Source: an uncultured Myxococcales bacterium (lineage in GTDB: Bacteria > UBA10199 > 2-02-FULL-44-16 > JAAZCA01). Taken from it: a DNA stretch of 64,000 nt. The stretch's first letter is position 1. Each line of letters starts with the position of its first letter. A model generated the notes under the pieces. That model made no database searches. It saw only the letters and a program-made list of their open reading frames with translations, and was not told where the DNA came from. This document shows positions 2,902 through 22,180 of this stretch, piece by piece. Location of the stretch: the NCBI GenBank assembly GCA_964480565.1, contig CAYZSU010000003.1, positions 1,415 through 65,414 on the forward strand, read 5' to 3'. Both the position numbers and the translations under genes were made by a program.

Positions 2902-2916
2902 TCAAAGGAGTTAATT

Positions 2917-4023: not shown

Positions 4024-4066
4024 TGGGCAAATATCGCAAAAGATCTTGAAGAGTTAGAGGGATAGG

Positions 4067-4735: not shown

Positions 4736-4851
4736 TGCTTAAATTTCACTTAGGTATCACTGTCGATATTCTGCAGTGGTTCCCTTTCTCGCAATATTCT
4801 GAATGACTCTGTATTCTCCTGTGTAAATCATAACACATGGGAGGAAATGTC

Positions 4852-5064
4852 ATGAACCAAGATAAGAAGTATTTACGTACCCCAGAAGCGGCGTCCTATA
4901 TTGGATTATCTGAAAGCACTTTGATCAAGGATAGGTGGAGCGGTCATCTTCAAATTCCTCATGTTAAAGTTGGTCGTTCGGTTCTTTACGATATTGGCGA
5001 CCTTGACGCGTGGTTAAATGGGCTAAAGGTAAACACGATTGAGGTCAAACATGAAGGATCGTAA
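4852..5064 (+). CDS. alpA: AlpA-family phage transcriptional regulator / excisionase-like DNA-binding protein
   Basis: YLRTPEAASYIGLSESTLIKDRWSGHLQIPHVKVGRSVLYDIGDLDAWL matches the AlpA/Xis HTH pattern; RBS gggagg 7 nt upstream of ATG 4852. Confidence 0.85.
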   Translation: MNQDKKYLRTPEAASYIGLSESTLIKDRWSGHLQIPHVKVGRSVLYDIGDLDAWLNGLKVNTIEVKHEGS

Positions 5065-5500
5065 GTCTGTAGAAAATGAAGACTTTGGATGTCCAATACT
5101 TGATGCCTTTATGTATGTGCCGGAAGGGATATATGACGTGGCATTTGTTAGATATGACCGTCCTGTAAATGTATTTGGCCCTGATGAACGAAGAATATTT
5201 TTTCACTGGAAAATCGTGACGCCTGGTGAATATTTTGAAGTACAACTATTTCAGTCATTTAAGCACTATGAAAGATGGGGAACACAATCGAAATACTATC
5301 GATGCTGGTGCTTGGCGGCTGGGCAGCGTCCACGCCGTCGAACAAGGATGACGCCAGATGTTTTTAAAGGTAAAATCTTTAAGGCTTCAGTTGAAATCGT
5401 ACAACCAAAATATGAGGATGGACCTTTTAAAGGAAAATCTCGGCCCGAGGCGGAGTGGTATAGTGTAGTCCGAAATTTATTGGAGATTATCGCAGGATGA
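5051..5500 (+). CDS. Hypothetical protein (149 aa), overlaps the alpA stop (translational coupling)
   Basis: ATG at 5051 preceded by gagg; no recognisable motif. Confidence 0.5.
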   Translation: MKDRKSVENEDFGCPILDAFMYVPEGIYDVAFVRYDRPVNVFGPDERRIFFHWKIVTPGEYFEVQLFQSFKHYERWGTQSKYYRCWCLAAGQRPRRRTRMTPDVFKGKIFKASVEIVQPKYEDGPFKGKSRPEAEWYSVVRNLLEIIAG

Positions 5501-5740
5501 AAAATCAGCGAATAGACATTAGTATTCAGTAGCTAGAAACCAGCAGAAAGAAACAAACAACTACCAACTTAGGGTCGATAAAAGTGTTGTCAAATGATCA
5601 TCTGCTGGATGCTTTGGACAAGTAGCACCTTTGGAAGCGGCTAACCAGAAAATATGCCAACAGCTCGGCTCTAACTTAAAGATGAGTCAGAGTCGAGCGC
5701 CAAAGGGTTGTGTTAATAACAGGAAAAACAGGTAATTTTA

Positions 5741-6154
5741 ATGCGAGATAATAAAGGAAAATTTTTGTCAGGATACAGTGGAAATCCGGATGGACGGCCA
5801 TCTGGCTGCCAAAGCAGGCTCTCGAAGGAACTTCAGCATGCAGCGGAGGATATCCTTCCACTCTGGATTGATGCTGCTTGTAAAGGTGATGAGGAGAAAC
5901 AGCGGTTTTTATTGGAGAGGGGACTTCCAAAATTTAAGGCTCAATCACCTGAGGTGAATATCAACCTTGATAGCGAAAGCAATACTGAGCGCATACGGTT
6001 GCTGTTGGTCGCTGTTGCGAAAGGGGAAATCCCTTCATCCGTAGCATCTGAGATCGTATCCATGATTGCAGCGGCAGCGAAGGTGGGGGAGATCGAAAAG
6101 CTGAAAGAAGAACTTGCAGCGGTCAAACTGATCCTGTCGAAGCGAAAGAAATGA
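5741..6154 (+). CDS. DUF5681-like phage/satellite-associated protein (137 aa)
   Basis: N-terminal SGNPDGRPSG resembles the GNP-x-GRPKG signature of DUF5681 proteins found in phages and satellites; coiled-coil C-terminus. Confidence 0.5.
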   Translation: MRDNKGKFLSGYSGNPDGRPSGCQSRLSKELQHAAEDILPLWIDAACKGDEEKQRFLLERGLPKFKAQSPEVNINLDSESNTERIRLLLVAVAKGEIPSSVASEIVSMIAAAAKVGEIEKLKEELAAVKLILSKRKK

Positions 6155-6162
6155 GGTGAAGA

Positions 6163-6687
6163 ATGAATACTTTTCAGTTGAGGGAAAAATATCGATATTT
6201 GACGCCGCAGGAGCGGGCAAAACTGTTTCTGTCTCAAGCGGTTCCCTACCAGGATAATCTCTTGGCCAACACCTTATCTTCTGAGACGCTATACGAGAGC
6301 TATCTGATGAATCTTACCGAATCACGATTGGTGATCTTTGGCATGTATTGGCTAAACAAGCTTACATTTCTTGAAGGAATGAATTCGAAAATCATTATGT
6401 CAGAGGATTTTGATACTGAATTTCAGAAACGATACGGTGATTTTGGCGATCCGGCTGCCGCGCTTGCTTATGTATTGAGCGAATTCGACAAGGAACATGG
6501 GGGCTGGCTGCAAGGTATTGCCGTTATTATGGGTTGTCAGGAATGTTGGGATCGTGCCCTTGCACGTAGCAAACTTATTCAACAATATAATCTCGATCAT
6601 AATTTCCCCGATCGCGTAGATAATATTTATAAAAATGTGCTGTCATTTTGGGAACACGTAGAACATTTGGATAATATTCAAAGTTGA
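6163..6687 (+). CDS. Hypothetical protein (174 aa)
   Basis: ORF with RBS gaggtg; 8 nt after the previous gene; no recognisable motif. Confidence 0.5.
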   Translation: MNTFQLREKYRYLTPQERAKLFLSQAVPYQDNLLANTLSSETLYESYLMNLTESRLVIFGMYWLNKLTFLEGMNSKIIMSEDFDTEFQKRYGDFGDPAAALAYVLSEFDKEHGGWLQGIAVIMGCQECWDRALARSKLIQQYNLDHNFPDRVDNIYKNVLSFWEHVEHLDNIQS

Positions 6688-6893
6688 GTTATATGAGGTT
6701 AATCTATTTATGAACCTTCAGGATTTTTCCGTCTTCGAGGGAGTGGCTCACGCGATGTTGCAGGATATGATTAGATTGTGGCGCGAGTGGTTATTTTTCA
6801 TTAATAATTATGAGACGGTAAGTGTCATGGAATGAGAACAGCTGCAAATTAGAAAATGTAAAGTCAGATGATACTACAATGAGAGCATTGTTG

Positions 6894-7637
6894 TTAGAAT
6901 AATTCAATTTGAAGATATTTCCAACAATTTGGAATGCTGCACGGTAAATTGAAGTTTTTTTCGTAAACCTTTTCAAAAAACATTTTTCTTACATCCTCTT
7001 TTTTTAATTTCAGAATTTCGATTTGATCTATAGTCAATCGAATTGTAGCGGGTGGAATATAAGCTTGTTTCGGATCGAATGGCTTTGCTTCAGCTAACAA
7101 TGAATCTTCCGTGTTTTGTGTGTGAATGTCGCTAGGTCCATTGAGATCTAGATAGCACTTAGAGAGTAGATGACGAAGTGATTCTGTATGTTTTCCTTCA
7201 GCATGCAGGATTTCTGCCATTTCCCAGTGGCAAAAACTATATTTCATCCATTCGTTATTACCGGCGTAAATTGAGAGTTGTTGGTTTAATATTGGCCAAC
7301 GCCTATTTCTTTCTTTTCGGCGCTTGGCTTCCTCTTCTTTTAATAGTATTTTCCCTTCCTCTAGATTAAATACTTTCTTCAGGTTTCTCTCTGTAAAATA
7401 AATGTGAATGTATTCATTTGAACAATGAGGGCAAATCCTCTTTCGTTTTCTACCAGGATTAATGAGTGGAGTCTTGCAATGTGGGCAATCATATTCTTTA
7501 TGAACCGGTGGTAGCTTAATGAATGGTTGTTCTGGTAATTTATGCTCGGTGATTTTGTTCTTCTTCCTTTTTCTTTTAATGTAGTGATTTACACAGAGTG
7601 ATAGTGAAAGTAATATGATAAACACTGTAAACCACAT
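6894..7637 (-). CDS. Membrane-anchored zinc-ribbon protein (247 aa); second gene of a leftward two-gene module
   Basis: N-terminal TM helix MWFTVFIILLSLSLCV, basic stretch, then CPHC-x15-CPHC zinc ribbon; C-terminal domain unknown. Confidence 0.6.
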   Translation of the reverse strand: MWFTVFIILLSLSLCVNHYIKRKRKKNKITEHKLPEQPFIKLPPVHKEYDCPHCKTPLINPGRKRKRICPHCSNEYIHIYFTERNLKKVFNLEEGKILLKEEEAKRRKERNRRWPILNQQLSIYAGNNEWMKYSFCHWEMAEILHAEGKHTESLRHLLSKCYLDLNGPSDIHTQNTEDSLLAEAKPFDPKQAYIPPATIRLTIDQIEILKLKKEDVRKMFFEKVYEKNFNLPCSIPNCWKYLQIELF

Positions 7638-7686
7638 CTATAAGCCTCCAGTTCTTGGGTTTGTTTACATATTCTCTTTTAACACC

Positions 7687-8454
7687 TTACTGCAAAACAT
7701 TGTCATTCTTTTCTTCAAGGAGTTTTGTCTTTCGTTTCTTCTTGTTTGGCAGTGATATCTTGATCGTTTCCATCTCATTATTGGCGGCTTCATTGAGAAG
7801 ACGGCGGATACCGCTGACGATTTCTTCTGGTGTAATCATAATTCCAGTTGTTCGGCGAAGCTCTCGGCGTATTCGTCGAAGATTATCTTCGGATAATATC
7901 GTTTCAAGGAGGTTGCCAGCTGAAAGCACATTGCGCTTTTTCCAAAGGGCATCGAGGCCACCCTTTTTGACGTTTTTGAATCCAATTTCCTCAAATCGCT
8001 CTGCAAGTAATGCAGGGGAGTCATTGAGTATGTTCCATGTATAGATTAGTTTCGTCTGAGGGGGTTGGCCGAATGAAATGTGATACAACTGCCATTCACG
8101 TCCATTGCTGAGCATAACCCATTCACAGCCTTTGTTAATGGCATAAGAGGCAGCCTGCTTGATATGCTTAGTAGCGAGATCAACATTTACTCGTTTGAGT
8201 TCAATGAGAATGATAGGTTCAGCATTATCAAGTTGGACTGCAAAATCGCAATATTCAATTTCCCCAGGGCCTTGGACTGCGTGTTCGCGAGTGACATGCT
8301 TAAAAACATCATATCCCATAAGTGAGTGGATAATTCTTTCAACGCGTCGCCTGGTTTCGGCTTCATTTCCATCTATATGCATGAGTTCCTGGATCATCTT
8401 TTGTGACTCTCGAATTGCTTTACGTGTTTCGGCTGCCATTTTTGCACGTGCCAT
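7687..8454 (-). CDS. PD-(D/E)xK nuclease-fold protein, HsdR-N-terminal-like (255 aa)
   Basis: GEIEYCDFAV...IILIELK gives a D...(E)xK catalytic arrangement typical of restriction-endonuclease-like nucleases; Arg-rich C-terminal extension. Confidence 0.55.
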   Translation of the reverse strand: MARAKMAAETRKAIRESQKMIQELMHIDGNEAETRRRVERIIHSLMGYDVFKHVTREHAVQGPGEIEYCDFAVQLDNAEPIILIELKRVNVDLATKHIKQAASYAINKGCEWVMLSNGREWQLYHISFGQPPQTKLIYTWNILNDSPALLAERFEEIGFKNVKKGGLDALWKKRNVLSAGNLLETILSEDNLRRIRRELRRTTGIMITPEEIVSGIRRLLNEAANNEMETIKISLPNKKKRKTKLLEEKNDNVLQ

Positions 8455-8540
8455 GATTGAATCGCCCTTTCTTTTTCCTTCTGCTGGATATGGTCAATAA
8501 TACCATAGGCAGATATACCTGTGGTCTATATAAGTCAAGC

Positions 8541-8765
8541 ATGACCTATGAAGAAACTTATGCCGCTTTCTCAAAACGTTTTCGTGGAAATTTGAAGAAA
8601 GCTTTGGCGGATGCAGGTTTGACACAAAGAAAGCAGCTTCTTGCTGGTCTAGATCCTCGTTACATTGCACGAATTAAAGCAGGTCAAGGCAATCCTACCC
8701 TTCAAACCATCTGGCGACTTGCTATTGCCGCTGGCATCGACCCTGAGAAGCTGTTTAAGAAGTGA
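8541..8765 (+). CDS. XRE-family helix-turn-helix transcriptional regulator (about 74 aa; start uncertain, ORF track begins at 8457)
   Basis: C-terminal TLQTIWRLAIAAGIDPEKLF is HTH_XRE-like; divergent from the nuclease gene. Confidence 0.5.
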   Translation: MTYEETYAAFSKRFRGNLKKALADAGLTQRKQLLAGLDPRYIARIKAGQGNPTLQTIWRLAIAAGIDPEKLFKK

Positions 8766-8837
8766 TTATTTGATTCGTCTTATGTTTGAAATATAATGAT
8801 GTACAAAAAGCAGGGAACACCGTTCCATAGATCTTAA

Positions 8838-9026
8838 TCTAAGCTTATCAGTAGAGGTCGCAATGCAGGCCTACTAGAAGCAAGGTATCGTCGAAATGTG
8901 TTTCTAGCAGATTGCTTTGCATTAGCGTTTTCCAGAAAAATGGGTGCAAAACTCATCACTTCTGATTTAAAATTAATAGAGGCGATTTCTGGAGATTTCA
9001 ATTATGCAATCTGTTTATTCAGATAA
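8838..9026 (+). pseudogene. PIN-domain (VapC-like) toxin remnant: C-terminal 62 codons only, no start codon, no antitoxin
   Basis: Open frame translating ...NVFLADCFALAFSRKMGAKLITSDLKLIEAI... resembles the VapC C-terminus (AD-x-x-IAA-x-A-x-x-G-x-x-L-x-T-x-D); preceded by an in-frame stop at 8835. Confidence 0.45.
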
Positions 9027-9348
9027 AACTTGAAAAACTTAGGGCGAAGGCTGAGTTAAAACTAAAGCAAGAAAGGCTGTATTAAAAAGGACAATGCTTG
9101 CACTGTAATAAAATATATTTTTCATATCTAGCCTCCTTTGAAGTTCGTCTATAAAAAAGAATATTGAACCCAGCATGATCCGCCACACGGTCATCACCGT
9201 CCTAAATTTTCCAATCACATTTCAAAGAACTACAGGACTATTCATTTTAACATAGCCACGTATAGATTTAACCATTCGTAGAAAATTTTGATGTGCTTAC
9301 TATGTGCTTGCTAGAAAAAAATGGGGCTGCTGCAAAAGACCGTAACCT

Positions 9349-9407
9349 GTTGAAATTGCTGAGCCGAGAATCGGAATTGAACCGACGACCTGCTGATTAC
9401 GAATCAG
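9349..9407. repeat. attR: 59-bp direct repeat, overlaps the 3' 46 nt of tRNA-Thr
   Basis: Identical to 1498..1556. Confidence 0.85.
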
Positions 9408-9434
9408 CTGCTCTACCAACTGAGCTATCTCGGC
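9362..9434 (-). tRNA. tRNA-Thr (anticodon CGT), 73 nt; integration target of the island
   Basis: Cloverleaf folded by eye on the reverse complement: GCCGAGA acceptor, GCTC/GAGC D-stem, GCTGA-TTCGTAA-TCAGC anticodon arm, TTCAATT T-loop. Confidence 0.85.
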
Positions 9435-9444
9435 TAAAATAATG

Positions 9445-9528
9445 TACCGAAGGCCGGATTTGAACCGGCACAAGCTAGTGCTCGGCAGATTTTGAATCTG
9501 CTGCGTCTACCAATTCCGCCACTCCGGC
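9445..9528 (-). tRNA. tRNA-Leu (anticodon CAA), type II with long variable arm, 84 nt
   Basis: Reverse complement GCCGGAG...GCAGA-TTCAAAA-TCTGC...variable arm...CCGG-TTCAAAT-CCGG...CTTCGGT-A. Confidence 0.8.
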
Positions 9529-10056: not shown

Positions 10057-12750
10057 ATGACTATGAATCTAAAAAAATCGATATATTGCTTATTTATTTT
10101 TGTTTTAGTTAGTTGTCTCAGTCAAACATCGTTTTCGCACCAATTTGACCTAAGTACAGTGGACGAACTCGTGGATGTTGAAAATACATCGGGTCGAATG
10201 ATTGTGGGACAGAATGATCATTTCTATATCTGCTATATTGATCGTCAAGAAAATGATTTAAAATTAGCGGAGTATGATGGGCAGGCATGGAATACGTCAA
10301 CAATTGTGGATGATCCAGCGGGTAATGCAGTTGTTGGTCGATATTGTTCGATTATTGAAGACAATTTGCAAAATTTACATATTCTTTATTTGACAGATTC
10401 CAATAGCAATACGATTCGCCACGTGTATCAGCAAGAACAGGCATGGATTGATGAGCATGTAGCGGATAATGTGCGGGCTGCGTTTTCACCGGTGGGTAGT
10501 AGCCGAATAAGCGTTGCTTTGAATGGAAATAATAAAATTGCTATGGCAGTTTATGATTCATCATTAAAAAATTTGATGTATATCGAGCAATTGGACAATG
10601 ATACTTGGGATGTACAAACTCTTGTTAGTAATGGTGATGTAGGGCGCTATGCATCAATTGCCTTTGATTTACAGGGCAATCCTATCATAATATATTCGGC
10701 GATGGAATTTGATGCGATTGCTCAGCGGAGTTTTGCACGGTTATATAAAATATGGCGAGATGGCGATCAGTGGCAGACATCAGAGCAGATATCAACTTCG
10801 GGCAGTTATAATGATTTTTTAATCGATGCGCAAGGACGAGGCCATTTGATTTATTCTACAGGGTCGGAGTTATATTATCGCCGATGGGTTGATGATCAAT
10901 GGCAAGGTGCCTATTTAATTGATCGCTCGACCTATGTGGGTATGTATTGCAATATGTATATGGATGTGGCGGGTAATTTGTTTATTGTCTATCAGGATAA
11001 ATATCGCAGCGCGCTATTTCCAGATCTCAATCAGTTAAAATTGGCATCGCTTTACTTTCAAACCACGGATTGGTTTTCAAGCGTATCAACGGAAACGATT
11101 ACTTTTTCAGGTATGGGGCAGGGATTGCAAAATCAGTATAGTCCATCCATTGGGATTACTGATGATTATCAAATGAGACTCACATGGTTAGAATCCTATG
11201 ATGCGCCAAATAATGAAACAAATCATAGGCTAAAAATTGCAGCGCTTCGCAATTGGCAATCGCGAATTGCCTTGATTACGCCAAATGCAGATGATCATGA
11301 TGCCACGGAAGAATTTGATTTTGAATGGTATTATTTTGATCCTGAAAATGAATCAACCATTCAGATTCACTATTATCAAGATTTTAATGATCAGCATGTA
11401 TTTCAAACTAATATTCATACTTCAAATCAGAGTTTGCATGAAGTCATCGATGTAGCGGATCTTGTGGCGGGATCCTATACTATTAAAGCGAGTATTACGG
11501 ATGATGCTAATCCGAGTGTAGAGTTTAATGCGGTTCACGCATTGGAGATCAATAATCGAGTACCCAACCAGCCATCACTTGTATCTCCTGAGCATGAAGC
11601 GACAGTGACAAGTGCATTGCCAGATCTAACCGCGAGTACTGTCACTGATTTGGATGGGGATGATGTGGTATATGTGTTTCAAGTATATCGCGATGATGCG
11701 GGACAGGACTTAGTGACAGAGTCTGCAGATATACAGGTTGTGCCAGGGGCGGATGATGTTGTATGGCGTGTGGATATTGCGCTAGATGATGGCAATACCT
11801 ATTATTGGCGTGTCAGGGCAGTCGATGAACACGATAATATGAGTGATTGGACGGACTATCGTTCATTTGATGTGGATATTGCGCATGCACCGACGCAACC
11901 AAAAGATATTCAAATTAATCTTGCGAATCATGCAATGCGTCCTATTATTTCCTGGGATAATAGTGTGGATATAGATGACGATGATATTCATTATAATGCA
12001 GTTATTTGTATAGATCAGCAATGTGCCACTGTTTTTATATCGGATGATGCTGTTATAGAGGACTTTTCAGGTCGATCTTCATGGCAGATAGATCAGGATT
12101 TAGATGCGGGGGATTATTATACTCGTGTGCGCGCCATTGATATTACGAATTCCAGTAGTATTTGGTCGACTACAATTGATTTTCAAATTGATGTGCCAGT
12201 TCAAGAGCCTGAAGAGCCTGAAGAGCCTGAAGAGCCTAACGCCGAACCATCAAATGATTTGCAAAATAATGATGACGATCTTGTACAAGATGAGGAGTCA
12301 ATTGATACTCCAGCAATAGATGAGCAAGATGATACCGCGCAATTGCAAGATGACACTGAAAACGATGATGCGGCGGAACAAGAAGCAACGGAGGATAACT
12401 CTGGTCAAAGTGGAGACGTGAGCGCTTCTGCCAAAGGGGGCTGTCAAATGATTGCCAATGATTATGAGCAAGATATATCATTATATATGGTCATGATTAT
12501 TTGTATGAGTATATGTGGGTATAGGCGAATCACCCTAAAATACGTTTTTCGAAGGCTTGGTCAGTCTGCTTTGCTTCAGATTCGTTCGTCATCGCGAGAG
12601 GCCCGACGGGCAATGTGGCGATCCAGCTTGGGATTGCTTCGTCACTTCGTTCCTCGCAATGACACAGTATTGGTACAACATCTCGTTTTTAGATCGAAGT
12701 TACGAAAGATGTCAGGGAGTGTTCTTATTGAATTTCCTGCCCAATATTAA
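10057..12750 (+). CDS. Large secreted repeat protein (897 aa): signal peptide, Y/W-rich beta-propeller-like repeats, FN3/Ig-like domains with YYWRVRAVD motif, acidic low-complexity region, C-terminal tail overlapping a palindromic repeat element
   Basis: Signal peptide MNLKKSIYCLFIFVLVSCLSQTSFS; repeated x-Y-x-W blocks; GNTYYWRVRAVDEHDNMSDW; EPEEPEEPEEP. Confidence 0.6.
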   Translation: MTMNLKKSIYCLFIFVLVSCLSQTSFSHQFDLSTVDELVDVENTSGRMIVGQNDHFYICYIDRQENDLKLAEYDGQAWNTSTIVDDPAGNAVVGRYCSIIEDNLQNLHILYLTDSNSNTIRHVYQQEQAWIDEHVADNVRAAFSPVGSSRISVALNGNNKIAMAVYDSSLKNLMYIEQLDNDTWDVQTLVSNGDVGRYASIAFDLQGNPIIIYSAMEFDAIAQRSFARLYKIWRDGDQWQTSEQISTSGSYNDFLIDAQGRGHLIYSTGSELYYRRWVDDQWQGAYLIDRSTYVGMYCNMYMDVAGNLFIVYQDKYRSALFPDLNQLKLASLYFQTTDWFSSVSTETITFSGMGQGLQNQYSPSIGITDDYQMRLTWLESYDAPNNETNHRLKIAALRNWQSRIALITPNADDHDATEEFDFEWYYFDPENESTIQIHYYQDFNDQHVFQTNIHTSNQSLHEVIDVADLVAGSYTIKASITDDANPSVEFNAVHALEINNRVPNQPSLVSPEHEATVTSALPDLTASTVTDLDGDDVVYVFQVYRDDAGQDLVTESADIQVVPGADDVVWRVDIALDDGNTYYWRVRAVDEHDNMSDWTDYRSFDVDIAHAPTQPKDIQINLANHAMRPIISWDNSVDIDDDDIHYNAVICIDQQCATVFISDDAVIEDFSGRSSWQIDQDLDAGDYYTRVRAIDITNSSSIWSTTIDFQIDVPVQEPEEPEEPEEPNAEPSNDLQNNDDDLVQDEESIDTPAIDEQDDTAQLQDDTENDDAAEQEATEDNSGQSGDVSASAKGGCQMIANDYEQDISLYMVMIICMSICGYRRITLKYVFRRLGQSALLQIRSSSREARRAMWRSSLGLLRHFVPRNDTVLVQHLVFRSKLRKMSGSVLIEFPAQY
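12205..12237. repeat. Tandem 9-bp repeat (gaagagcct, about 3.7 copies) encoding EPEEPEEPEEP in the 897-aa protein
   Basis: Read directly in the sequence. Confidence 0.8.
12588..12665. repeat. Palindromic REP/MITE-like element (imperfect inverted arms gtcatcgcgagagg / cctcgcaatgac); its right arm is 32/35 identical to 49166..49200 in inverted orientation
   Basis: Reverse complement of 12631-12665 is gtgtcattgcgaggaacgaagtgacgaagcaatcc versus 49166-49200 gcgtcattgcgaggagcgaagtgacgaagcaattc. Confidence 0.65.
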
Positions 12751-12803: not shown

Positions 12804-13814
12804 CTACCACTCATCTTTTAACAGATCTTGCTTGATCCGCTCCAAAATTGAATTTCCTTTTTTAAACTTCATCTGCAAGAGAAATGCATGCAATGTAGAT
12901 AAAATTGAATTTCCTTCCTGAGGGATAAAGGCCCAACCTTTTATATTAGTGCTACTGGTAATAAGATTTTCTGAAAGAACGATGGCATGTGAAAAAAGTC
13001 TTCCCTGGAAACCGTATCGCCTGCCAAGATCAAAAACAATATTGGAATCAAATTTTCGAGTTGAAGCTAAAAAAGAATTTGATTTAATTAAATCGGATAT
13101 GTCTAGTGATAAAGGTTTTTTAAGAGTAATGTTAAATCGAGCGGTATGCATTAATTGGCTGGGTGTCGTTATGTCAGAAGAATATAGATTACAAGGGACA
13201 TTAATTGTTTTAAACATATCTACAACATCAATTGCATGATGTGTCCCAATTTTTAAATCCTGGTGGCGAGAAACAACATGAGCTGAAACAAGGCGTTCAT
13301 GATTTGCAAGATCATCGGATCTTCTTACAATAACCATGTCTGCATGAGATAGGTTGTCGAGTTTTTTTCCAGTGATTGTTGAGAGAAGTGACGCTATAGC
13401 ATGCGTATTGCAAGATACGACATTGACAAAACGTTTTCCAAAAATAATATTATCATTAATACCTGTCATAAACAAGGTGCCAAATCCTTTTTCACTTCCT
13501 TGAGCAGAGGCTTTGATTGTTTGGATTGATTTATAGTTATTGAGGTTTTGTAAGCCAATCCCATTGGCTGTTGCCTCAAAGATATAATCAATTTTATTAA
13601 TTATTGTATTTAAGGGCAGATATTTTGAATTTGAAGATGTTGTGCAAAGTTTGACGTTCATTGCTTCTAATATATCTCGTTCAATTTTATTCCAAGGATG
13701 AATGGAATGTTTGCAGGCATAAATTTGGTCAATATCAAGGTTGCTTTGATAACGAACCAGCAAATTAATAAGGGTTGTTCCAATGTTTCCTGTGCCATTT
13801 ACTAGAACTCTCAT
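12804..13814 (-). CDS. Type II (archaeal-type) glyceraldehyde-3-phosphate dehydrogenase family protein (336 aa)
   Basis: MRVLVNGTGNIGTTL (Rossmann GxGxxG), VVSCNTHAIA (archaeal GAPDH catalytic SCNTT motif), VIVRRSDDL and GTHHAIDV match the VIVRRGADP / PSHHGPDV blocks of archaeal GAPDH as I recall them. Confidence 0.65.
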   Translation of the reverse strand: MRVLVNGTGNIGTTLINLLVRYQSNLDIDQIYACKHSIHPWNKIERDILEAMNVKLCTTSSNSKYLPLNTIINKIDYIFEATANGIGLQNLNNYKSIQTIKASAQGSEKGFGTLFMTGINDNIIFGKRFVNVVSCNTHAIASLLSTITGKKLDNLSHADMVIVRRSDDLANHERLVSAHVVSRHQDLKIGTHHAIDVVDMFKTINVPCNLYSSDITTPSQLMHTARFNITLKKPLSLDISDLIKSNSFLASTRKFDSNIVFDLGRRYGFQGRLFSHAIVLSENLITSSTNIKGWAFIPQEGNSILSTLHAFLLQMKFKKGNSILERIKQDLLKDEW

Positions 13815-14016
13815 AGTAATTCCAAGTTAAATGATGGATGTATTTTTAGCAACCCCTCAAGATAATTTTATGGACAAGAGCGTTGAGGAGCACTACTTGA
13901 GAAATTCATGGATTATTTTCGAGCATATGAAATCTTTCTGATGAATATTGTTTTTATTCATGGCATGATAAAAAAAATGATTGTTTTATGGGTGCTTTTT
14001 TGACTTAGGAGATATA

Positions 14017-17000
14017 ATGAAATTAAAATTAATTTTATTCGTCTTAATTATGTTATTGGTCCAGTCAGGTGTTGCAGTATTTGCATTGGCGGATTTCAAT
14101 GAACAAAAACAGTTAAAGATAATGCGTGTTACCCCAAGTGGAAAAGATGTGTCAATTGGGCAACAGCTTGTTTTTCAGTATAATCGTCCTGTTGTTCCTA
14201 TCGGTCGCATGGCGCGCAATAATAGTGACATACCCGTTAATATTTCTCCAAAATTAAATTGCCAATGGTATTGGATAAATACCAGTGCGCTTGCGTGCCA
14301 ATTGGATAATAAAAATAAGATGCAGGCAGCAACCAAGTACACTGTCACCATGAATCCCGGTATACGTGCCAAAGATGGTGCAACGATTGATGCGGTTTAC
14401 ACTCATAGTTTTATTACACAACGTCCTCAGATGCGTTATTTTCAGTTTTATGATTGGCAAGGCCCTGGAACACCTATTATTAGGCTTACTTTTAATCAAT
14501 CGGTGAGTAGATCTTCTGTAGAGAAATACATTGCATTTGTTTATCGTAAAAAAGGAGTCGATAATGCATATATTACGCATGGCATAACAGTTGAAAAAGA
14601 TCCAAATGATCGGGAGGATCCCATTTATATTGCTGTTTCAGGCTCAAATAACAGCAATGAATTAATAGGAGAAGAGGCCAGAAGGCGATGGCTTATTTCT
14701 CCGAAAAAAGAGCTATTGCTTGATACCCGTATTGATTTGAAAGTGACACCTGGTCTTGTTTCTGCATTAGGAAAAGAGCCTGGAGTTGAGGATAGAGTTC
14801 TTATAACTTTTCATACATTTCCGGAGTTTGCCTTTTTGGGTGTGATCTGCACAACAAATGATGACAATGATATACTGATTACAAAAGAAAATAATCACAA
14901 AATTGGCAAGTGCAATCCACTTGAACACACCGCACTTTCTTTTTCTACGCCTGTAGTAAATTCACAAATTAAGAATAATATTCTTATTCATCCTAATCTG
15001 GCAGGTAATAGAAACGATTATGACCCATGGGCAAACACTTGGGATTATTCACAGCTAGATCGTGCTCATAAAAAAGGTATGCGCTATAATGTATGGTTGC
15101 CAGAGTATTTAAAGGCAGTACAAACTTATACGCTTGCAACATTGCCTGCAGATTTAGATGCCATTGACAAAATAAAATCACTATTTGTTGATATACGGTC
15201 GTCTGATTTAGAAGATGAATTTGGTCGCGTATTAAAAGAGCCAATAGATATAACATTTTTTACCGATCATCGTAAGCCAAATTTTGAGCTGCTATATCGA
15301 ACTGCAGTATTGGAAAAACAGGTCAACTCTGATCTTCCCCTGTATATGACCAATCTTGATCGCATTATGCTTAATTATAAAAAATTAACCATTAATGGGG
15401 TGAAGGATAGTCAATTATTTACTCTTGATGATATTCCGCAGGTAGAGGATGTGCAATTTGTAGTTCCAATGCATGTGCGAGATATGCTTGAAAATAAAAG
15501 TGGTGCTATCTATGGAACAGTTGAAACGAAACCGCATGTAGAAAAATCGCCAATAGAGCGAGTGTTCTTTGCAAGTGTCAGTCCATATCAGTTACATGTA
15601 AAAGTGGGGCATTATAATACACTCGTATGGGTGACTGATTTAGCGACTGGTGAGCCTGTCAATAATGCTCATGTACAAATATATAAGGATAAGGTCAGCA
15701 ATCTTTCTTCCAGCTTTAATGCCTTGGATAAAGGCTATACAAATGCATCGGGATTGGTATTGCTAAAAGGAATGCATATATTGAATCCGACACTTGATTT
15801 ATTCAGGTACTGGTGCACTGATGAAAGTCAAAATGATTGTGATCGTTTATTTGTACGTGCTGACAATGCCGGTGAAATGGCGGTAATGCCGCTGCAAGAA
15901 GAATTCGAATTAAGCATTTATCGTGCTTCTAATGATACTATTTGGCCAAGGATAAAAAGGAAATACGGCCATATTCATACATGGGGAACAACTGCACAGG
16001 GTGTTTATCGCGCGGGTAAAACTATGCAATACAAGTTCTATGTGCGGGATCAAAATAATGATCACTATGTTCCTGCACCTAATAAGTCTTATACGCTTGA
16101 GATTGTTGACCCTACTGGAAAAACAGTGCATGAAATTACGGATATTACCTTGTCAACATTTGGTAGTTATAGCGGTGAATATACTGTGCCGGAAAATGCA
16201 GCCGTTGGATGGTATCGTTTTAAATTGAGCAGTAGTTTTACCCATTATACATGGCAGCCCATGCGCGTATTGGTCAGTGATTTTTCTCCTGAGTCATTTA
16301 AAGTAAGGACTTCTCTGAATGGTGATTTATTTCATCCTGGAGATAATGTCGAAGTGTCAAGTGCTGCCAAGCTTTATTCCGGTGGTGCCTATACTGATGC
16401 AGAGGCTAGAACTACAGTCATATTAAGGAGTGCTTATTTTTCATCACCACATCCGATAGCCAATGAGTTTACATTCGATAGCTACAAGCATCAATCATTA
16501 AAAAAAGTTTTCCAGAAAATTGATAATGTCGATAATAAGGGTGAAATCAGTCATACATTTCCATTGCCCAGGGAGGATATTATTTATGGGCGTTTAACAG
16601 TAGAGAGTGCCATACGTGATGATCGTGGAAAATATATCGCTGCGAGCGCAACAGCAGATTATATTGCGCTAGATCGATTGGTCGGTTTAAAACATACCAA
16701 ATGGTTTTATGAAGAAGATAAATTAGCGCAAATTAAATATATCGTGGTGGATAAATACGGAGTGCCAATTGCAAATACACAGGTGCTATTGGATATAAAT
16801 CGTTTGCAGACAAAGGTTGCCAAGGTCAAAGGGGCGGGGAATGTCTATCTTACAAATTATATTGATGAATGGATTCCTTCTGGAACCTGTAAAGGTATGT
16901 CTAAGGTTGAACCACTACAGTGTGACTTTATTCCTGAAGAACCAGGCACTTATAAAGTCACTGCAACGATTAAAGATACAAAAGGCAATGCGCATTCTAC

Positions 17001-19911
17001 TGAAATAAGGGCCTGGGTTTCCGGCAAAGGCCATGTGTTGTGGCATACCCCTGATGATAACTCACTGCAAATTATTCCAGAAAAAACGGATTATAATATT
17101 GGTGATAAAGCGCGTTATCTGATTAAGAATCCGTATCCAGGTGCGAAGGCCTTGATAACCATTGAGCGCTATGGCGTAATCAAGTCGTGGGTGCAAACGT
17201 TAAATGAAAGTACTTCGGTGATTGAATTTGAAGTTGAAAAAAACTTTATGCCAGGATTTTACTTATCTGTGATTGTCATGTCGCCGCGTATTGACACATC
17301 ATTACCAAAAATGGGGCAGGTTGACCTTAGTAAGCCAACGTTTAAAGTTGGCTATGTGAAAGTGCCGGTAAAAGATCCTTATAAGCAGATTGATGTATCG
17401 ATCCAAACCGATGCTGCAGTGTATAAACCGCGTGATAAGGTAACTGCGACCATTCATGTACAGCCTAAACATAAGAATAATAATGAAGACGATATTGAGA
17501 TTGCAGTAGTTGTGCTCGATGAAGCTGTATTGGATTTGATAGAGGGAGGGCAATCATATTTTGATCCGTATGAGGGCTTTTACAAACTCGATGAATTGGA
17601 TTTAGTGAATTACAGCTTATTAACGCGCCTGATTGGTCAACAGAAGTTTGCTAAAAAAGGTGCCAATCCGGGCGGTGATGGTGGGGTGAATATCAGTATG
17701 CGATCACTGTTTAAATATGTCAGTTATTGGAATCCGTCCATAAAACCAAATAAAAATGGCAATGCGATGATTAGCTTTAATGCGCCGGATAATTTGACGG
17801 GTTGGCGGGTGCTTGCTTTTGCAGTAACTCCTTCTGACCGTATGGGACTTGGCGCTACCAATTTTAAAGTGAATCGCTCTACTGAAATTCGTCCAGTCAT
17901 GCCCAATCAAATCACGCAAGGGGATGTATTTCAGGCGGGGTTTAGCGTGATGAACCGTACTGATAAACCAAGGGATATAACGGTAACTATTGATGCAAAG
18001 GGGCATATTCAACCCACGAATGTATTTTCAAAAACTATTCACTTGGAACCTTATAAACGTCAAACAGTATATATGCCTGTTTCATCCGCTCATTTGCCAC
18101 AGAGTAGAGATATTAATGCGGGTGCGATTCATTTTTCTGTCAAGGCATTGGATGCTATGGATGGTGATGGAATTGAACACATTATACCCATTCACAAGCA
18201 ACATTTACTGGAATCCGTTGTAAATTATGGCACAACAACAAAGGATAAGGTGTCCGAATCGCTTCATTTTCCAAAAAATATACATACTGATATTGGTGAT
18301 GTATCCATGGTTTTGTCCCCATCGGTGATAGGCAGTGTGGATGGTGCATTTCAATATATTCGTGATTATCCGTATACCTGCTGGGAACAGAAATTGTCCA
18401 AAGGAGTGATGGCCTTGCATTATCAGAATTTAAAGGGATATCTTTCTGATGATTTAAAATGGGAAGAAAGTAAATCTCTGTCAAATGATATCTTAATGCA
18501 AGCGGCTAATTATCAAGCGCCCAATGGTGGAATGGCGTACTTTATTTCGCAGGATCAATATGTCAGTCCGTATTTAAGTGCTTATACAGCGCTTGCATTT
18601 AATTGGCTGCACGAGAGGCATCATGATGTACCCGAAGCTGTTGAGTCCAAATTACACGCCTACCTTGAGCGTTTGCTGAAAAAAGATGTGATGCCAATGT
18701 TTTATTCACGGGGTATATCTTCTACTGTCCGATCCATAGCGCTTTTTGCACTGGCTAAACATGGAAAAGTATCACTAAGTGATTTAGAGCGCTATCGTTC
18801 CCATATTCAATACATGAGCTTGTTCGGTAAATCGCATTATCTCCAAGCTGCATTGGAAGTAAATGGCGCAGAAGTGATTGCCAAAGAAGTTATGGACATG
18901 ATTCTTGCACATTCCAATCAATCAGGTGGTAAATTCAGTTTCAAGGAAGAATTAGACGATAGCTATACACGTATTATTGCGACATCACTTCGAGCAAATT
19001 GTGGAATATTATCCGCTATGACAAGCTATGCTGAAAACAACATTGGTGCATCTGTGGAGCATGATATACCTTTTAAGTTAATGCGTCATATTGTACAAAA
19101 ACGAGGTAATCGAGAGCATTGGAAAAATACACAAGAAAATATTTTTTGCATGAACAGTCTGGTTGACTATGCGCGTATTTATGAAAATATAAAACCGACT
19201 ATGCGCGTGTCAGCGACTCTGAATGGAAGTGAGTTTGGAAAAACTAATTTCAATGATTTGCATGATGATTCGGTGACATTTAGTCGGTCCATTACTGCAG
19301 ATGATCCTGGCACACATCAATCCATCACTTTGTCGCGAAAAGGAAATGGCCGGCTCTACTATGCTGCACGTATGAACTATAGCTTGCTAGAGGAATCTGC
19401 AAATCGTCTGAATGCTGGGATTGATATTCGTAAGGAATATAGTGTTGAACGAAATGGCGAGTGGATTCTATTGGGCAATCCGAATGAGATCAGTCTTGGA
19501 GAATTGGTGCGAGTTGATATTTATGTGTCATTGCCTGTGGCGCGATATTTTGTTGTTGTGGATGATCCAGTGCCAGGTGGATTGGAGCCGATAAATCGTG
19601 ACCTGGCAACCTCTTCATCCATTGATGCAAATAAGGGGGATTTTCAAGTTGCCGGTGGGGCATGGTGGTTTCAATATGATGATTGGCATTACTTCAGTGG
19701 ATCGCGTTGGAGTTTTTATCATAAGGAAATTAGGTATAATGCGGTGCGTTTTTATTCGGACTATCTTCCTGCAGGTAATTATCATCTATCATATGCTGCG
19801 CAAGCGATTGCTAAAGGGAGTTTCACTAAAATACCAGTACATGCAAAAGAAATGTATGATTCAGATGTATTTGGTAAGGGATTGCCTGGAATGTTGATCG
19901 TAGGTGATTAA
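14017..19911 (+). CDS. Bacterial alpha-2-macroglobulin family protein (YfhM-like, 1964 aa from the ATG at 14017) with an intact thioester motif
   Basis: Size; signal peptide MKLKLILFVLIMLLVQSGVAVFALA; thioester-like YPYTCWEQ (CxEQ); adjacent pbpC; RBS aggag before 14017 (ORF track begins at a TTG at 13981). Confidence 0.8.
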   Translation: MKLKLILFVLIMLLVQSGVAVFALADFNEQKQLKIMRVTPSGKDVSIGQQLVFQYNRPVVPIGRMARNNSDIPVNISPKLNCQWYWINTSALACQLDNKNKMQAATKYTVTMNPGIRAKDGATIDAVYTHSFITQRPQMRYFQFYDWQGPGTPIIRLTFNQSVSRSSVEKYIAFVYRKKGVDNAYITHGITVEKDPNDREDPIYIAVSGSNNSNELIGEEARRRWLISPKKELLLDTRIDLKVTPGLVSALGKEPGVEDRVLITFHTFPEFAFLGVICTTNDDNDILITKENNHKIGKCNPLEHTALSFSTPVVNSQIKNNILIHPNLAGNRNDYDPWANTWDYSQLDRAHKKGMRYNVWLPEYLKAVQTYTLATLPADLDAIDKIKSLFVDIRSSDLEDEFGRVLKEPIDITFFTDHRKPNFELLYRTAVLEKQVNSDLPLYMTNLDRIMLNYKKLTINGVKDSQLFTLDDIPQVEDVQFVVPMHVRDMLENKSGAIYGTVETKPHVEKSPIERVFFASVSPYQLHVKVGHYNTLVWVTDLATGEPVNNAHVQIYKDKVSNLSSSFNALDKGYTNASGLVLLKGMHILNPTLDLFRYWCTDESQNDCDRLFVRADNAGEMAVMPLQEEFELSIYRASNDTIWPRIKRKYGHIHTWGTTAQGVYRAGKTMQYKFYVRDQNNDHYVPAPNKSYTLEIVDPTGKTVHEITDITLSTFGSYSGEYTVPENAAVGWYRFKLSSSFTHYTWQPMRVLVSDFSPESFKVRTSLNGDLFHPGDNVEVSSAAKLYSGGAYTDAEARTTVILRSAYFSSPHPIANEFTFDSYKHQSLKKVFQKIDNVDNKGEISHTFPLPREDIIYGRLTVESAIRDDRGKYIAASATADYIALDRLVGLKHTKWFYEEDKLAQIKYIVVDKYGVPIANTQVLLDINRLQTKVAKVKGAGNVYLTNYIDEWIPSGTCKGMSKVEPLQCDFIPEEPGTYKVTATIKDTKGNAHSTEIRAWVSGKGHVLWHTPDDNSLQIIPEKTDYNIGDKARYLIKNPYPGAKALITIERYGVIKSWVQTLNESTSVIEFEVEKNFMPGFYLSVIVMSPRIDTSLPKMGQVDLSKPTFKVGYVKVPVKDPYKQIDVSIQTDAAVYKPRDKVTATIHVQPKHKNNNEDDIEIAVVVLDEAVLDLIEGGQSYFDPYEGFYKLDELDLVNYSLLTRLIGQQKFAKKGANPGGDGGVNISMRSLFKYVSYWNPSIKPNKNGNAMISFNAPDNLTGWRVLAFAVTPSDRMGLGATNFKVNRSTEIRPVMPNQITQGDVFQAGFSVMNRTDKPRDITVTIDAKGHIQPTNVFSKTIHLEPYKRQTVYMPVSSAHLPQSRDINAGAIHFSVKALDAMDGDGIEHIIPIHKQHLLESVVNYGTTTKDKVSESLHFPKNIHTDIGDVSMVLSPSVIGSVDGAFQYIRDYPYTCWEQKLSKGVMALHYQNLKGYLSDDLKWEESKSLSNDILMQAANYQAPNGGMAYFISQDQYVSPYLSAYTALAFNWLHERHHDVPEAVESKLHAYLERLLKKDVMPMFYSRGISSTVRSIALFALAKHGKVSLSDLERYRSHIQYMSLFGKSHYLQAALEVNGAEVIAKEVMDMILAHSNQSGGKFSFKEELDDSYTRIIATSLRANCGILSAMTSYAENNIGASVEHDIPFKLMRHIVQKRGNREHWKNTQENIFCMNSLVDYARIYENIKPTMRVSATLNGSEFGKTNFNDLHDDSVTFSRSITADDPGTHQSITLSRKGNGRLYYAARMNYSLLEESANRLNAGIDIRKEYSVERNGEWILLGNPNEISLGELVRVDIYVSLPVARYFVVVDDPVPGGLEPINRDLATSSSIDANKGDFQVAGGAWWFQYDDWHYFSGSRWSFYHKEIRYNAVRFYSDYLPAGNYHLSYAAQAIAKGSFTKIPVHAKEMYDSDVFGKGLPGMLIVGD

Positions 19912-20002
19912 CGGGCAATTCTGCAAATGAGGGCAAGCCAGTAATGGCAAATACATAAGAGGATGGTGTTGAATTAAACTTTTTGGCAAATATCGACAAT
20001 GG

Positions 20003-22180
20003 ATGTTTTTTAACAGTTTTGTCACAGTGATGGCTGTTGCGATAGTGACGCTTGCGCTGTACACCTTTTTTAGTTTAAAGCCCACGCCAGAGTCTTTTCA
20101 TGCAGTTCTTTCCAATAGTCATAATATTCAAGTGCTTGATCGACATGGTGAGCCGTTAAATACGACATATCAAAATAATTGGAATATTCATGATATAGTG
20201 GCATTGCATCAAGTGCCAGATTTTTTAAAACATGTGTTTATTATATCTGAAGATAAGCGATTTTATCAGCATTCAGGTGTGGATTGGCTGGCAAGAGGGG
20301 CAGCTCTTTTTGCGAATATAAAGGCCATGCGTGCTGTGCGTGGGGCCAGTACGATTACAGAGCAAGTAGTGCGAATGATTCATCCTCGTCCACGTACTGT
20401 TTGGTCGCGTTGGCTAGAAGGTATGGAAGCCATAGTATTAGAGAATTATTTTAGCAAAGAGAGTTTATTGGAATTTTACCTCAATCAAGTGCCGTATGCG
20501 GCCAATCGTAGAGGTATTGTTCAAAGTGCTCGTTATTATTTTAACCGTGATTTAAACACGCTCAGTAAAAAGGAAATGTTGGCATTGGTGGTTTTAGTTC
20601 GCGCGCCAAGCCGATTGGATTTATGGAAGAATACGGAAAAAATTGAAGCCAGTATTTGTCGGCTTATGGATCAGCTCATTGAAAAAAATATGCTAACTGC
20701 GCAGAATAAAGAAATTATTCTTTCAGAAAACTTTGAATTGGAAACACCACATCTTTTTGTTAATGCAAATGAATTTATAAGGTATGTTAAACATCATTCG
20801 CGCATTCATTTTGCAGGTTGGCCGCATGTGAAAACAACGTTGGACTCAATGCTACAAAACCGCACTCAAACTATGCTGGATAATCGATTGCATTATCTTA
20901 AATCTAAGAAAGTACGAAACGGCGCAGTGCTGGCTGTGGATCACACCACTGGGGAGATTCTTGCGTGGGTTGTTGCAGGGAAAGGATCAAAAGGTACTTT
21001 GGGCAGGTTTATTGATGCAGTTACAGTTCCTCGTCAGCCTGGATCTGCATTAAAGCCATTGCTATATTCGCTTGCATTGAAAAAAGGGTGGTCCGCTGCT
21101 ACGATCATTGATGATGCGCCGCTTGTTGAATCCGTAGGGAATGGTTTACACAGTTATCAAAATTATAGTCGTATCTTCTATGGCCCAGTTACACTTAGGC
21201 AAGCTCTTGCTAATTCACTAAATACCCCAGCAGTCAGGACATTGAAATATGTGGGTGCAGAGAACTACCTCAATTACTTGAATGATTTTGGATTTACAGG
21301 GCTTACCAATCATCCTAATTTTTATGGTGATGGCATTGCCTTGGGAAATGGGGAAGTAACTCTTTATGAATTAGTACAAGCGTATGCAGCGATTGCAAAT
21401 CAAGGGATTTTCAAGCCACTGACCCCATTTTTTAATGATTTAAATGCTATGCCTGCGCACTATAGTTTATCACCGGAAATATCTTCTTTGATCGGACTTA
21501 TTTTATCCGATTCAGAGGCGAGGGCTTTGGAGTTTGGTGAGGACAGTGTTTTGAATTTTGCCGTGCAAACAGCGGTTAAAACAGGCACGTCAAGTGACTA
21601 TAGAGACAGCTGGGCCATTGGTTTTAATTATCGCTATACGGTGGGTGTATGGATGGGAAATTTGGATCAACGGCCAACAGATGGCATTAGCGGTTCTACT
21701 GGGCCTGCATTATTGCTTAGAAGTGTATTTTATGAACTGACCAAACATCAGAAAACAAAGCCACTTTCTGTTCATAATGGTTTAATCACGCATGATTTAT
21801 GTGTGGATACTAAACAACTTAAATCCAATGATAAGGATTGCAAAACCTATACAGAATGGTTTGTGCCAGGTACTGAACCTTCATTTTCTGTAACAAATAT
21901 GAAATATACAGTGCCAATACGTTTGCGCCAGCCAGTAAATGATTTGCATATTGCCTATGATCCGCGCATACCCAAAGAAAGTCAGTCATTTGAATTTTAT
22001 ATTCAGGGTGTGTCTGATGAAGAAACAGTTGTGTGGAATATCAATGGCAAACAGATAATAACTAAAGGAGGGCTTTACTCCTGGCCATTGCAAAAGGGAA
22101 GGCATGAAGTGCATGCAACTGTATGGCATGGGAAACAACGCATTGCTACAATTAATAACACAGTGTTTTGGGTCAGATGA
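20003..22180 (+). CDS. pbpC: Penicillin-binding protein 1C (bifunctional GT51 transglycosylase / transpeptidase)
   Basis: EDKRFYQHSGVDW and GASTITEQ (GT51 motifs); SALKP, SLN, KTGTS (transpeptidase motifs); conserved pairing with alpha-2-macroglobulin. Confidence 0.85.
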   Translation: MFFNSFVTVMAVAIVTLALYTFFSLKPTPESFHAVLSNSHNIQVLDRHGEPLNTTYQNNWNIHDIVALHQVPDFLKHVFIISEDKRFYQHSGVDWLARGAALFANIKAMRAVRGASTITEQVVRMIHPRPRTVWSRWLEGMEAIVLENYFSKESLLEFYLNQVPYAANRRGIVQSARYYFNRDLNTLSKKEMLALVVLVRAPSRLDLWKNTEKIEASICRLMDQLIEKNMLTAQNKEIILSENFELETPHLFVNANEFIRYVKHHSRIHFAGWPHVKTTLDSMLQNRTQTMLDNRLHYLKSKKVRNGAVLAVDHTTGEILAWVVAGKGSKGTLGRFIDAVTVPRQPGSALKPLLYSLALKKGWSAATIIDDAPLVESVGNGLHSYQNYSRIFYGPVTLRQALANSLNTPAVRTLKYVGAENYLNYLNDFGFTGLTNHPNFYGDGIALGNGEVTLYELVQAYAAIANQGIFKPLTPFFNDLNAMPAHYSLSPEISSLIGLILSDSEARALEFGEDSVLNFAVQTAVKTGTSSDYRDSWAIGFNYRYTVGVWMGNLDQRPTDGISGSTGPALLLRSVFYELTKHQKTKPLSVHNGLITHDLCVDTKQLKSNDKDCKTYTEWFVPGTEPSFSVTNMKYTVPIRLRQPVNDLHIAYDPRIPKESQSFEFYIQGVSDEETVVWNINGKQIITKGGLYSWPLQKGRHEVHATVWHGKQRIATINNTVFWVR

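Follow-up and report, generated by a model that had tools for sequence, protein, structure and literature searches.

A bacterial type II GAPDH-like dehydrogenase and its usual pairing with a small phosphoglycosyl transferase

The dehydrogenase and its place among GAPDHs

The window analysed here is a 64-kb stretch of DNA from an uncultured Myxococcales bacterium, and it carries on its minus strand the gene for a 336-amino acid dehydrogenase (Table 1), which an initial annotation, made from the sequence alone, had described as a homologue of the archaeal-type (type II) glyceraldehyde-3-phosphate dehydrogenases (GAPDHs). The motifs behind that description are present in the protein as VNVVSCNTH (residues 130-138), VIVRRSDDL (161-169) and GTHHAIDV (190-197), the SCTTN motif is absent as had been stated, and the gene does run against its neighbours, with both flanking genes on the plus strand. 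The open reading frame (ORF) is full length and its start is the one typical of the protein family described below.

Using the NCBIfam models we found the best matches to be the two for type II GAPDH, NF003251 (E=4.6e-25; 88.4 bits against a cut-off of 185) and TIGR01546 (72.3 bits against 232.9), with the next match, to acetaldehyde dehydrogenase, reaching only 19 bits. Both curated cut-offs are missed by more than 2-fold, which makes the protein a relative of type II GAPDH and not an orthologue. At E<=1 no NCBIfam model for type I GAPDH (TIGR01534/TIGR01532), Asd or ArgC was matched, a Pfam search with the 336-amino acid protein returned nothing at E<=1, and sequence searches of the PDB at E<=10 gave no Asd or ArgC structure. 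Searched singly against the PDB the protein matched archaeal GAPDH structures at E=1e-10 to 3e-15, and a profile of 43 family sequences matched 1B7G, 2CZC, 2YYY and 1CF2 at E=1e-19 to 7e-13, 1B7G being the match at E=1e-19. When the protein and two family profiles were used as queries only archaeal GAPDHs were found, the best type I structures standing at E=0.24-0.59. Likewise, an AlphaFold2 model built from the 43 family sequences (pLDDT 92.2, pTM 0.91) had archaeal GAPDHs as its top six Foldseek matches (TM 0.78-0.80; E 4e-21 to 5e-19), at ~20% sequence identity, with type I GAPDH and erythrose-4-phosphate dehydrogenase (E4PDH) forming a second tier at TM ~0.65.

NCBIfam, the PDB profiles and the fold search therefore agree on a type II GAPDH homologue and not a type I GAPDH, Asd or ArgC, and the latter two families, which the annotation had itself raised as alternatives, did not appear in the profile searches. 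The name ‘type II GAPDH’ holds for homology, fold and active site; as a claim of orthology it does not, given the two bit scores above and the lack of a Pfam match, and ‘GAPDH type II’ labels on such bacterial proteins are probably over-calls. Compared with the archaeal enzymes (1CF2 of M. fervidus, 1B7G of S. solfataricus, 2CZC of P. horikoshii and 2YYY of M. jannaschii; cd18127), the fold and length are the same and the SCNT, His base, RR and HH residues and a QE-containing C-terminal motif are shared, but unlike those anabolic, NADP-linked enzymes this protein has bacterial hosts and only about one fifth identity, and its family lies mostly in operons with a phosphoglycosyl transferase (PGT) and not in a gluconeogenic context. 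Type I GAPDH and E4PDH (TIGR01534, TIGR01532) belong to the same superfamily and use the same thiohemiacetal and phosphorolysis chemistry; unlike them, the window protein lacks the SCTTN/His176 context and any significant sequence match to them.

In M. fervidus GAPDH (1CF2) the catalytic Cys140 stands with Ser139, Asn141 and Thr142 and is served by the base His219, the inorganic phosphate (Pi) site is formed by Ser139, Asn141, Arg167, His193 and His194, and the substrate phosphate (Ps) site by Arg167/Arg168, while type I GAPDH has another catalytic His and other phosphate ligands (PMC12041015). Residue equivalences come from the family profile aligned to 1CF2 with HMMER (Table 1). S134, C135, N136, R164, R165, H192, H193 and H223 are invariant in the 43 family members, as are N6, G7, G9, N10 and G12 of the dinucleotide-binding loop, and T137 is at least 90% conserved. 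Judged by this alignment, the window protein keeps all catalytic, Pi-site and Ps-site residues of the M. fervidus enzyme, and the conserved machinery predicts covalent catalysis through a thiohemiacetal and thioester with phosphorolysis, as well as a substrate whose phosphate would lie at about the distance found in glyceraldehyde-3-phosphate (G3P).

A rare bacterial family paired with a small PGT

A search of 5.8 billion clustered proteins gave 580 relatives at E<=1e-3, the closest at 62% identity. The top 119 are 52-62% identical over 99-100% of their length, have 324-356 amino acids and no precomputed Pfam domain, and bear the source names ‘hypothetical’ or ‘GAPDH type II’. When 1.84 billion representatives were searched exhaustively with phmmer, 278 clusters reached E<=1e-3 and 48 of them E<=1e-30, and a pattern scan with one genome for each species gave 118 relatives among 185,579 representatives (best 62%), which do not include the window's own species. 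These low counts show the family to be rare, and bear out the earlier remark that bacterial homologues are uncommon. Family-invariant motifs are AQGSEK, VSCN(T)H, VRRS, GTHH, SDxTTPSQLxH, KxDSN, GR..G..GR and GWA..QEGN, and the window protein has all the invariant columns of both family alignments (A1 and A2); by these sequence criteria it belongs to a distinct bacterial family, separate from archaeal type II GAPDH. A second tier of GAPDH-II-like proteins, at 31-37% identity and 345-380 amino acids, includes three from Patescibacteria (P0138, P0140, P0150). These share AQGSE, SCNTH, RR, GTHH, GRxxGxxGR and PQDGNS and also score below the type II cut-offs, but they differ in being stand-alone genes, with neither a PGT neighbour nor glycolytic linkage at the four loci examined.

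Taxon labels on the family are mostly Crocinitomicaceae and other Flavobacteriales, Bacteroidales and Marinilabiliales, followed by Verrucomicrobiales/Akkermansiaceae, which include the isolate Haloferula sp. BvORR071 and a Rubritalea metagenome-assembled genome (MAG). Further labels, on single loci, are Burkholderiales, Ignavibacteria, Chlorobi, Gemmatimonadales, Leptotrichiaceae and Alphaproteobacteria, and some labels are probably binning errors. The loci from a ‘Henriciella pelagia’ MAG (L028; 535-kb contig, GC 0.38) and an ‘Arenicella sp.’ (L025; GC 0.37) have Crocinitomicaceae-like synteny, and the former carries PorP/SprF genes of the type IX secretion system (T9SS), which suggests that both are Bacteroidota contigs mis-binned into proteobacterial MAGs. 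Locus GC across the family runs from 0.29 to 0.70, so the spread over several lineages is real despite the suspect labels.

We examined gene neighbourhoods at 81 non-redundant loci by clustering the ORFs within +/-6 kb. In 72 of them the gene immediately upstream, in the same orientation, is a small PF02397 (Bac_transf) gene of ~177 codons; the next most frequent neighbour, present in 16 of 81, reflects lineage synteny. At 41 of the 72 PGT-dehydrogenase junctions the two genes overlap, in most cases by 4 nt, and at another 27 they are 0-30 nt apart; the median spacing is -2.5 nt. Two of the nine apparent exceptions (L041 and L060) are truncated contigs with a partial PGT match. Searching from the PGT side gave a clade of 177-186-amino acid proteins whose contigs also carry the dehydrogenases, and in each of two clade members checked the PGT is followed by a Pfam-less gene for 337-338 amino acids. 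The normal state of the family is a translationally coupled PGT-dehydrogenase cassette. Other recurrent flanking genes (a GalE-like epimerase, TerB/DnaJ and T9SS proteins) recur only by lineage synteny, Rfam searches of seven cassette loci gave no riboswitch or leader, and PADLOC gave no defence-system match for the dehydrogenase and its usual partner. With no recurrent third gene, Rfam element or PADLOC match, the cassette stands as an autonomous two-gene module. One apparent PGT-dehydrogenase fusion (P0137, 505 amino acids, from a high-GC source) was set aside as a probable artefact of sequencing or gene calling, its linker and C-terminus looking like a frameshifted high-GC translation.

Against PF02397 the partner scores 138-164 bits across the whole model, and it matches the PglC structures 8E37/8G1N at E ~1e-29 and keeps the Asp-Glu dyad in DELPQL and the PRP motif, both shared with PglC-like small monotopic PGTs; by sequence it is a complete enzyme of this kind. 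Compared with PglC it is ~25 residues shorter, with the GLLLP mobile loop (12 residues) deleted and the C-terminal tail that bears part of the aromatic box missing, and these two losses mean that it is not a diNAcBac-type PglC. Unlike PglC it is also not embedded in a glycan gene cluster. The missing parts are the lid loop and tail that cover the PglC active site, and PGT variation of this sort has been speculated to mediate protein interactions (PMC10186338); control of PGTs by protein partners is documented (PMC12802240). The dehydrogenase could on these grounds be a non-catalytic, nucleotide- or metabolite-sensing regulatory subunit, comparable to the cytosolic Rossmann-like domain of large PGTs or to activation by a response regulator. 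We regard this as very improbable, as the invariant Cys135, His223, Arg164/165 and His192/193 are hard to explain without catalysis and orphan copies of the dehydrogenase persist without any PGT.

In the Akkermansiaceae/Rubritalea clade a gene for a group II pyridoxal-phosphate (PLP)-dependent decarboxylase (PF00282) lies directly upstream of the PGT. The domain was confirmed in L005 and L096, and the genes in L019 and L084 were assigned by clustering with these; in L096 the decarboxylase-PGT gap is 14 nt. Decarboxylase, PGT and dehydrogenase possibly form a three-gene operon, and the decarboxylase could hint at an amine-containing product or could reflect lineage synteny. At another locus, L082 from a Flavobacterium-labelled MAG, genes for a type I GAPDH, a PA3715-family protein, the PGT and the GAPDH-II-like dehydrogenase stand in a row on one strand. 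This type I GAPDH passes TIGR01534 (391 bits; cut-off 367) and lies 1.4 kb upstream of the cassette, while the paired family member again falls below both type II cut-offs (NF003251 96.0 bits, TIGR01546 75.5). L082 is the only locus where the two GAPDH classes were seen together, and the only one with a PA3715-family gene near the cassette.

The window copy and its surroundings

Even at E<=10 no Bac_transf-like sequence turned up in the 64-kb window or on sibling contigs of other samples. The position directly upstream of the dehydrogenase, where other genomes have the PGT gene, is here taken by the intergenic region that separates it from an alpha-2-macroglobulin (A2M) gene. The identical protein occurs on eight contigs from several metagenomes. 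True orphans elsewhere are found in a basal verrucomicrobial clade (L064, L069, L071), in L086 (Gemmatimonadales), in L065 (Leptotrichiaceae) and in L019, which is labelled Cryomorphaceae and groups with Verrucomicrobiales loci. In L019 a 38-amino acid remnant of the PGT C-terminus is left between the PLP-decarboxylase gene and an intact GAPDH-II-like gene, and the partner appears to be in the process of decay. Scanning metagenomes with the A2M N-terminus for related genomes without the gene gave one distant, truncated contig, which was uninformative.

In a rough neighbour-joining tree the window protein is nested in a clade of paired Crocinitomix and Verrucomicrobiales genes, and its two closest relatives, at 61-62% identity, come from Crocinitomicaceae-type loci with a PGT. 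The gene has a GC content of 0.344 and a third-position value (GC3) of 0.273, the lowest of 31 window genes (means 0.402+/-0.025 and 0.350+/-0.037). The rest of the window is bacterial in content, with a type II secretion system (T2SS), BamB, GyrA, Der, dimeric GlyRS, PPDK and an Opp transporter; the GspC of its T2SS matches the ‘delta’ model, and its GyrA (818 amino acids) is 72-77% identical to that of MAGs named ‘Deltaproteobacteria bacterium’ or ‘Myxococcales bacterium’. Taken together, the delta-like GyrA, the low GC and the paired, Crocinitomicaceae-type nearest relatives point to the gene having come laterally from a Bacteroidota-type donor of low GC; the partner would have been either lost or never transferred. 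The initial annotation had proposed horizontal acquisition from gene orientation, and the nearest relatives and base composition make it plausible. We think it fairly likely that the window copy was acquired laterally and is without its partner; transfer from a Bacteroidota-type donor to the window lineage is the most likely direction.

Around the gene, a promoter and terminator scan gave matches no better than those of shuffled sequence, and Rfam searches of the whole window found tRNAs only, with no riboswitch or leader. No canonical gap gene is present in the 64 kb. In the sibling contig L002 the A2M gene was called as two ORFs (1239 and 714 amino acids), suggesting either a frameshift or a difference in assembly. 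The window GyrA is without an intein, whereas its relatives P0420, P0434, P0437, P0450 and P0496 have ~1290-1300 amino acids and an intein domain (PF14890). Near its start the window holds a probable integrated element bounded by tRNA genes; the dehydrogenase gene lies ~3.3 kb past this element and outside it. A glutamate dehydrogenase is the second window enzyme with an archaeal closest curated model, its best match being the archaeal GdhA model NF040817 (618.8 bits, below the cut-off of 750) and its scores on bacterial NADP-linked models far lower.

Table 1. Features of the window and of compared loci, with their positions
Feature	Locus	Position	Strand	Remark
GAPDH-II-like dehydrogenase gene	window	12804..13814	-	complete ORF, ATG start, 336 aa
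NGTGNIG (N6-G12), Rossmann dinucleotide-binding loop	window	13779..13799	-	aligns with NGYGTIG/NGYGTVG of archaeal GAPDHs
S134-C135-N136-T137, catalytic Cys and flanks	window	13404..13415	-	aligns with S139/C140/N141/T142 of 1CF2
R164-R165, predicted Ps and Pi ligands	window	13320..13325	-	aligns with R167/R168 of 1CF2
H192-H193, predicted Pi-site histidines	window	13236..13241	-	aligns with H193/H194 of 1CF2
H223, predicted general base activating C135	window	13146..13148	-	aligns with H219 of 1CF2; TT(P)xxLMH motif
Divergent intergenic region, 166 bp	window	13815..13980		between dehydrogenase and A2M genes
Secreted protein, 897 aa	window	10057-12750	+	flanking gene
Alpha-2-macroglobulin, 1976 aa (MG2, A2M_BRD, A2M, bMG10)	window	13981-19911	+	divergent from dehydrogenase gene
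Alpha-2-macroglobulin and PBP1C-type Transgly/Transpeptidase genes	window	13981-22180		PBP1C-type gene after A2M
Probable integrated element	window	1511-9528		
tRNA	window	1511-1576	-	adjoins phage-type integrase
Phage-type integrase	window	1684-2901	+	followed by small HTH_17, DUF5681 and HSDR_N_2 genes
HTH_3 gene	window	~8457-8765		inside putative island
Two tRNAs	window	9362-9434 and 9445-9528	-	far end of putative island
GyrA gene	window	37638-40094		
Glutamate dehydrogenase gene	window	45846-47102		
PLP-dependent decarboxylase gene	L005	6081-7448		upstream of PGT
PLP-dependent decarboxylase gene	L096	3622-4986		upstream of PGT
PLP-dependent decarboxylase gene	L019	540-1982		upstream of PGT remnant
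PLP-dependent decarboxylase gene	L084	8084-9442		upstream of PGT
PGT C-terminus remnant	L019	2001-2114		
Type I GAPDH, PA3715-family, PGT and GAPDH-II-like genes	L082	7632-11008		
Phosphoglucomutase gene, 666 aa	L071	11011-13011		overlaps orphan dehydrogenase gene
Alpha-amylase gene	L064	11036-12700		convergent, downstream of orphan dehydrogenase gene

Proposed function and its alternatives

On balance we favour the view that the window gene encodes a dehydrogenase of a PGT-coupled family, here laterally acquired and partner-less. The protein is very probably an active phosphorylating aldehyde dehydrogenase, or acyl-phosphate reductase, of the type II GAPDH lineage, judging by its conserved active site. 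G3P or a close analogue is most likely the substrate, with NAD(P) as the presumed cofactor. The enzyme would be cytosolic and of the NAD(P)-dependent, Cys/His phosphorylating type: Cys135, activated by His223, would add to a short phospho-aldehyde, bound through its phosphate by Arg164/Arg165, to give a thiohemiacetal, hydride would pass to NAD(P)+, and phosphate bound at Ser134/Asn136/Arg164/His192/His193 would cleave the thioester to give an acyl phosphate; the reverse reaction may also take place. At the level of the family it is likely that the role is tied to the dedicated minimal PGT, the genetic linkage being observed and the functional coupling inferred. This chemistry would supply or process something for the PGT at the membrane, in a specialised lipid-linked pathway rather than in bulk glycolysis, and the window copy would act alone or with an unlinked partner. 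In a more specific two-enzyme version, the GAPDH-like enzyme would make or consume a reactive phospho-acyl or phospho-aldehyde compound that is the direct donor or acceptor of the PGT, for example a 1,3-bisphosphoglycerate-like acyl phosphate, leading to a new class of polyprenyl-phosphate-linked non-sugar intermediate of the glyceroyl or phosphoglyceroyl type; we hold this version to be a long shot.

The closest known functional precedent is the ArsJ-associated GAPDH, a second, non-glycolytic type I GAPDH found in a small mobile cassette with a major facilitator superfamily (MFS) transporter that deals with its acyl-anhydride product. The present family differs in having a type II-like enzyme and, in place of the transporter, a monotopic PGT, and the window protein has no match to the ArsJ-associated GAPDH model in NCBIfam (NF033735).

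Several observations weigh against the favoured reading. The retained G3P and Pi ligands are equally consistent with a plain GAPDH, and we know of no PGT that needs a dehydrogenase partner. Pfam analysis of 137 flanking genes at 53 dereplicated loci did not find glycosyltransferase, flippase, polymerase or sugar-nucleotide genes to be recurrent near the cassette. The NADP-determining Lys33 of the archaeal enzymes (the Asn32 position of type I) has Ala33 as its counterpart here; Arg35 of 1CF2 is matched by Lys35, which is invariant in the family and lies where strand beta2 ends in the AlphaFold2 model, and the next residue is His36 here and Arg in most members. The tree that nests the window protein among paired genes carries no support values. 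Finally, the protein deviates at six of the 96 columns with a conservation of at least 90% (G53N, L100I, E167D, G170A, N179H and E262D, none of them catalytic), against a family median of one, which could mean an altered or relaxed function, or lineage divergence.

These deviations bear most directly on whether the window copy is a relic without function, part of a cassette that was transferred or kept without its partner and is now drifting. All six full-length orphans are among the most deviant members of the family, with 5-10 deviations, and some paired members are equally deviant. A relic would also fit with the missing PGT, with the decayed PGT in L019, which shows that cassettes do break down, and with the lack of any relative closer than the best match reported above. 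Against it stand the full-length ORF with its family-typical start, the intact catalytic and phosphate-site residues, the mostly conservative nature of the substitutions and the recurrence of the identical protein in several metagenomes, and orphan lineages such as the Haloferula/Luteolibacter clade keep an intact gene, which suggests that a stand-alone function is possible. We therefore give the relic only a small chance.

A plain enzyme of central carbon metabolism, that is a bona fide GAPDH isozyme of the archaeal, anabolic, NADP-linked type to which the PGT neighbour is incidental or related by supply, deserves closer weighing. Conservation of every M. fervidus catalytic, Ps-site and Pi-site residue is what such an isozyme would show, its best sequence and structure matches are all GAPDHs, and some sources annotate family members as ‘GAPDH type II’. 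A sugar-phosphate substrate is also suggested by the orphan gene in L071, which overlaps a phosphoglucomutase gene by a few nt, and the orphan in L064 has a convergent alpha-amylase gene downstream. Such contexts were not seen for the PGT-paired copies. However, an isozyme is difficult to reconcile with scores so far below both curated type II cut-offs, and no linkage to pgk, tpi or fba was seen among the flanking genes surveyed. A housekeeping glycolytic role is disfavoured at the family level by the rare and patchy distribution, by tight coupling to a PGT in ~90% of loci from lineages of 29-70% GC, and by the true type I GAPDH that coexists with the cassette in L082. We consider the isozyme rather unlikely, and retain as the preferred reading a PGT-coupled family with a laterally acquired, partner-less member in the window.

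Reviews separate archaeal and bacterial GAPDHs cleanly (PMC12525153), although the GapDH_II subfamily has been stated to occur ‘in bacteria and archaea’ (PMC12041015). We found neither the family nor its pairing with a PGT described in Pfam, NCBIfam, PADLOC or the searchable literature, where only reviews were relevant, and the family-level pairing appears to be new. Under the usual split type I GAPDH belongs to bacteria and eukaryotes and type II to archaea; the present locus belongs to a third group, bacterial and type II-like with a full GAPDH active site. The window gene would be a clear case of cross-phylum acquisition of half a module, and if the two-enzyme version were true the orphan copies would be snapshots of a module being dismantled and re-used. 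Taken by itself the window locus is moderately interesting; the result most worth following up is the cassette at the level of the family, as the pairing offers a testable lead to a new lipid-linked intermediate, or to a new control of the first membrane step of glycoconjugate synthesis.

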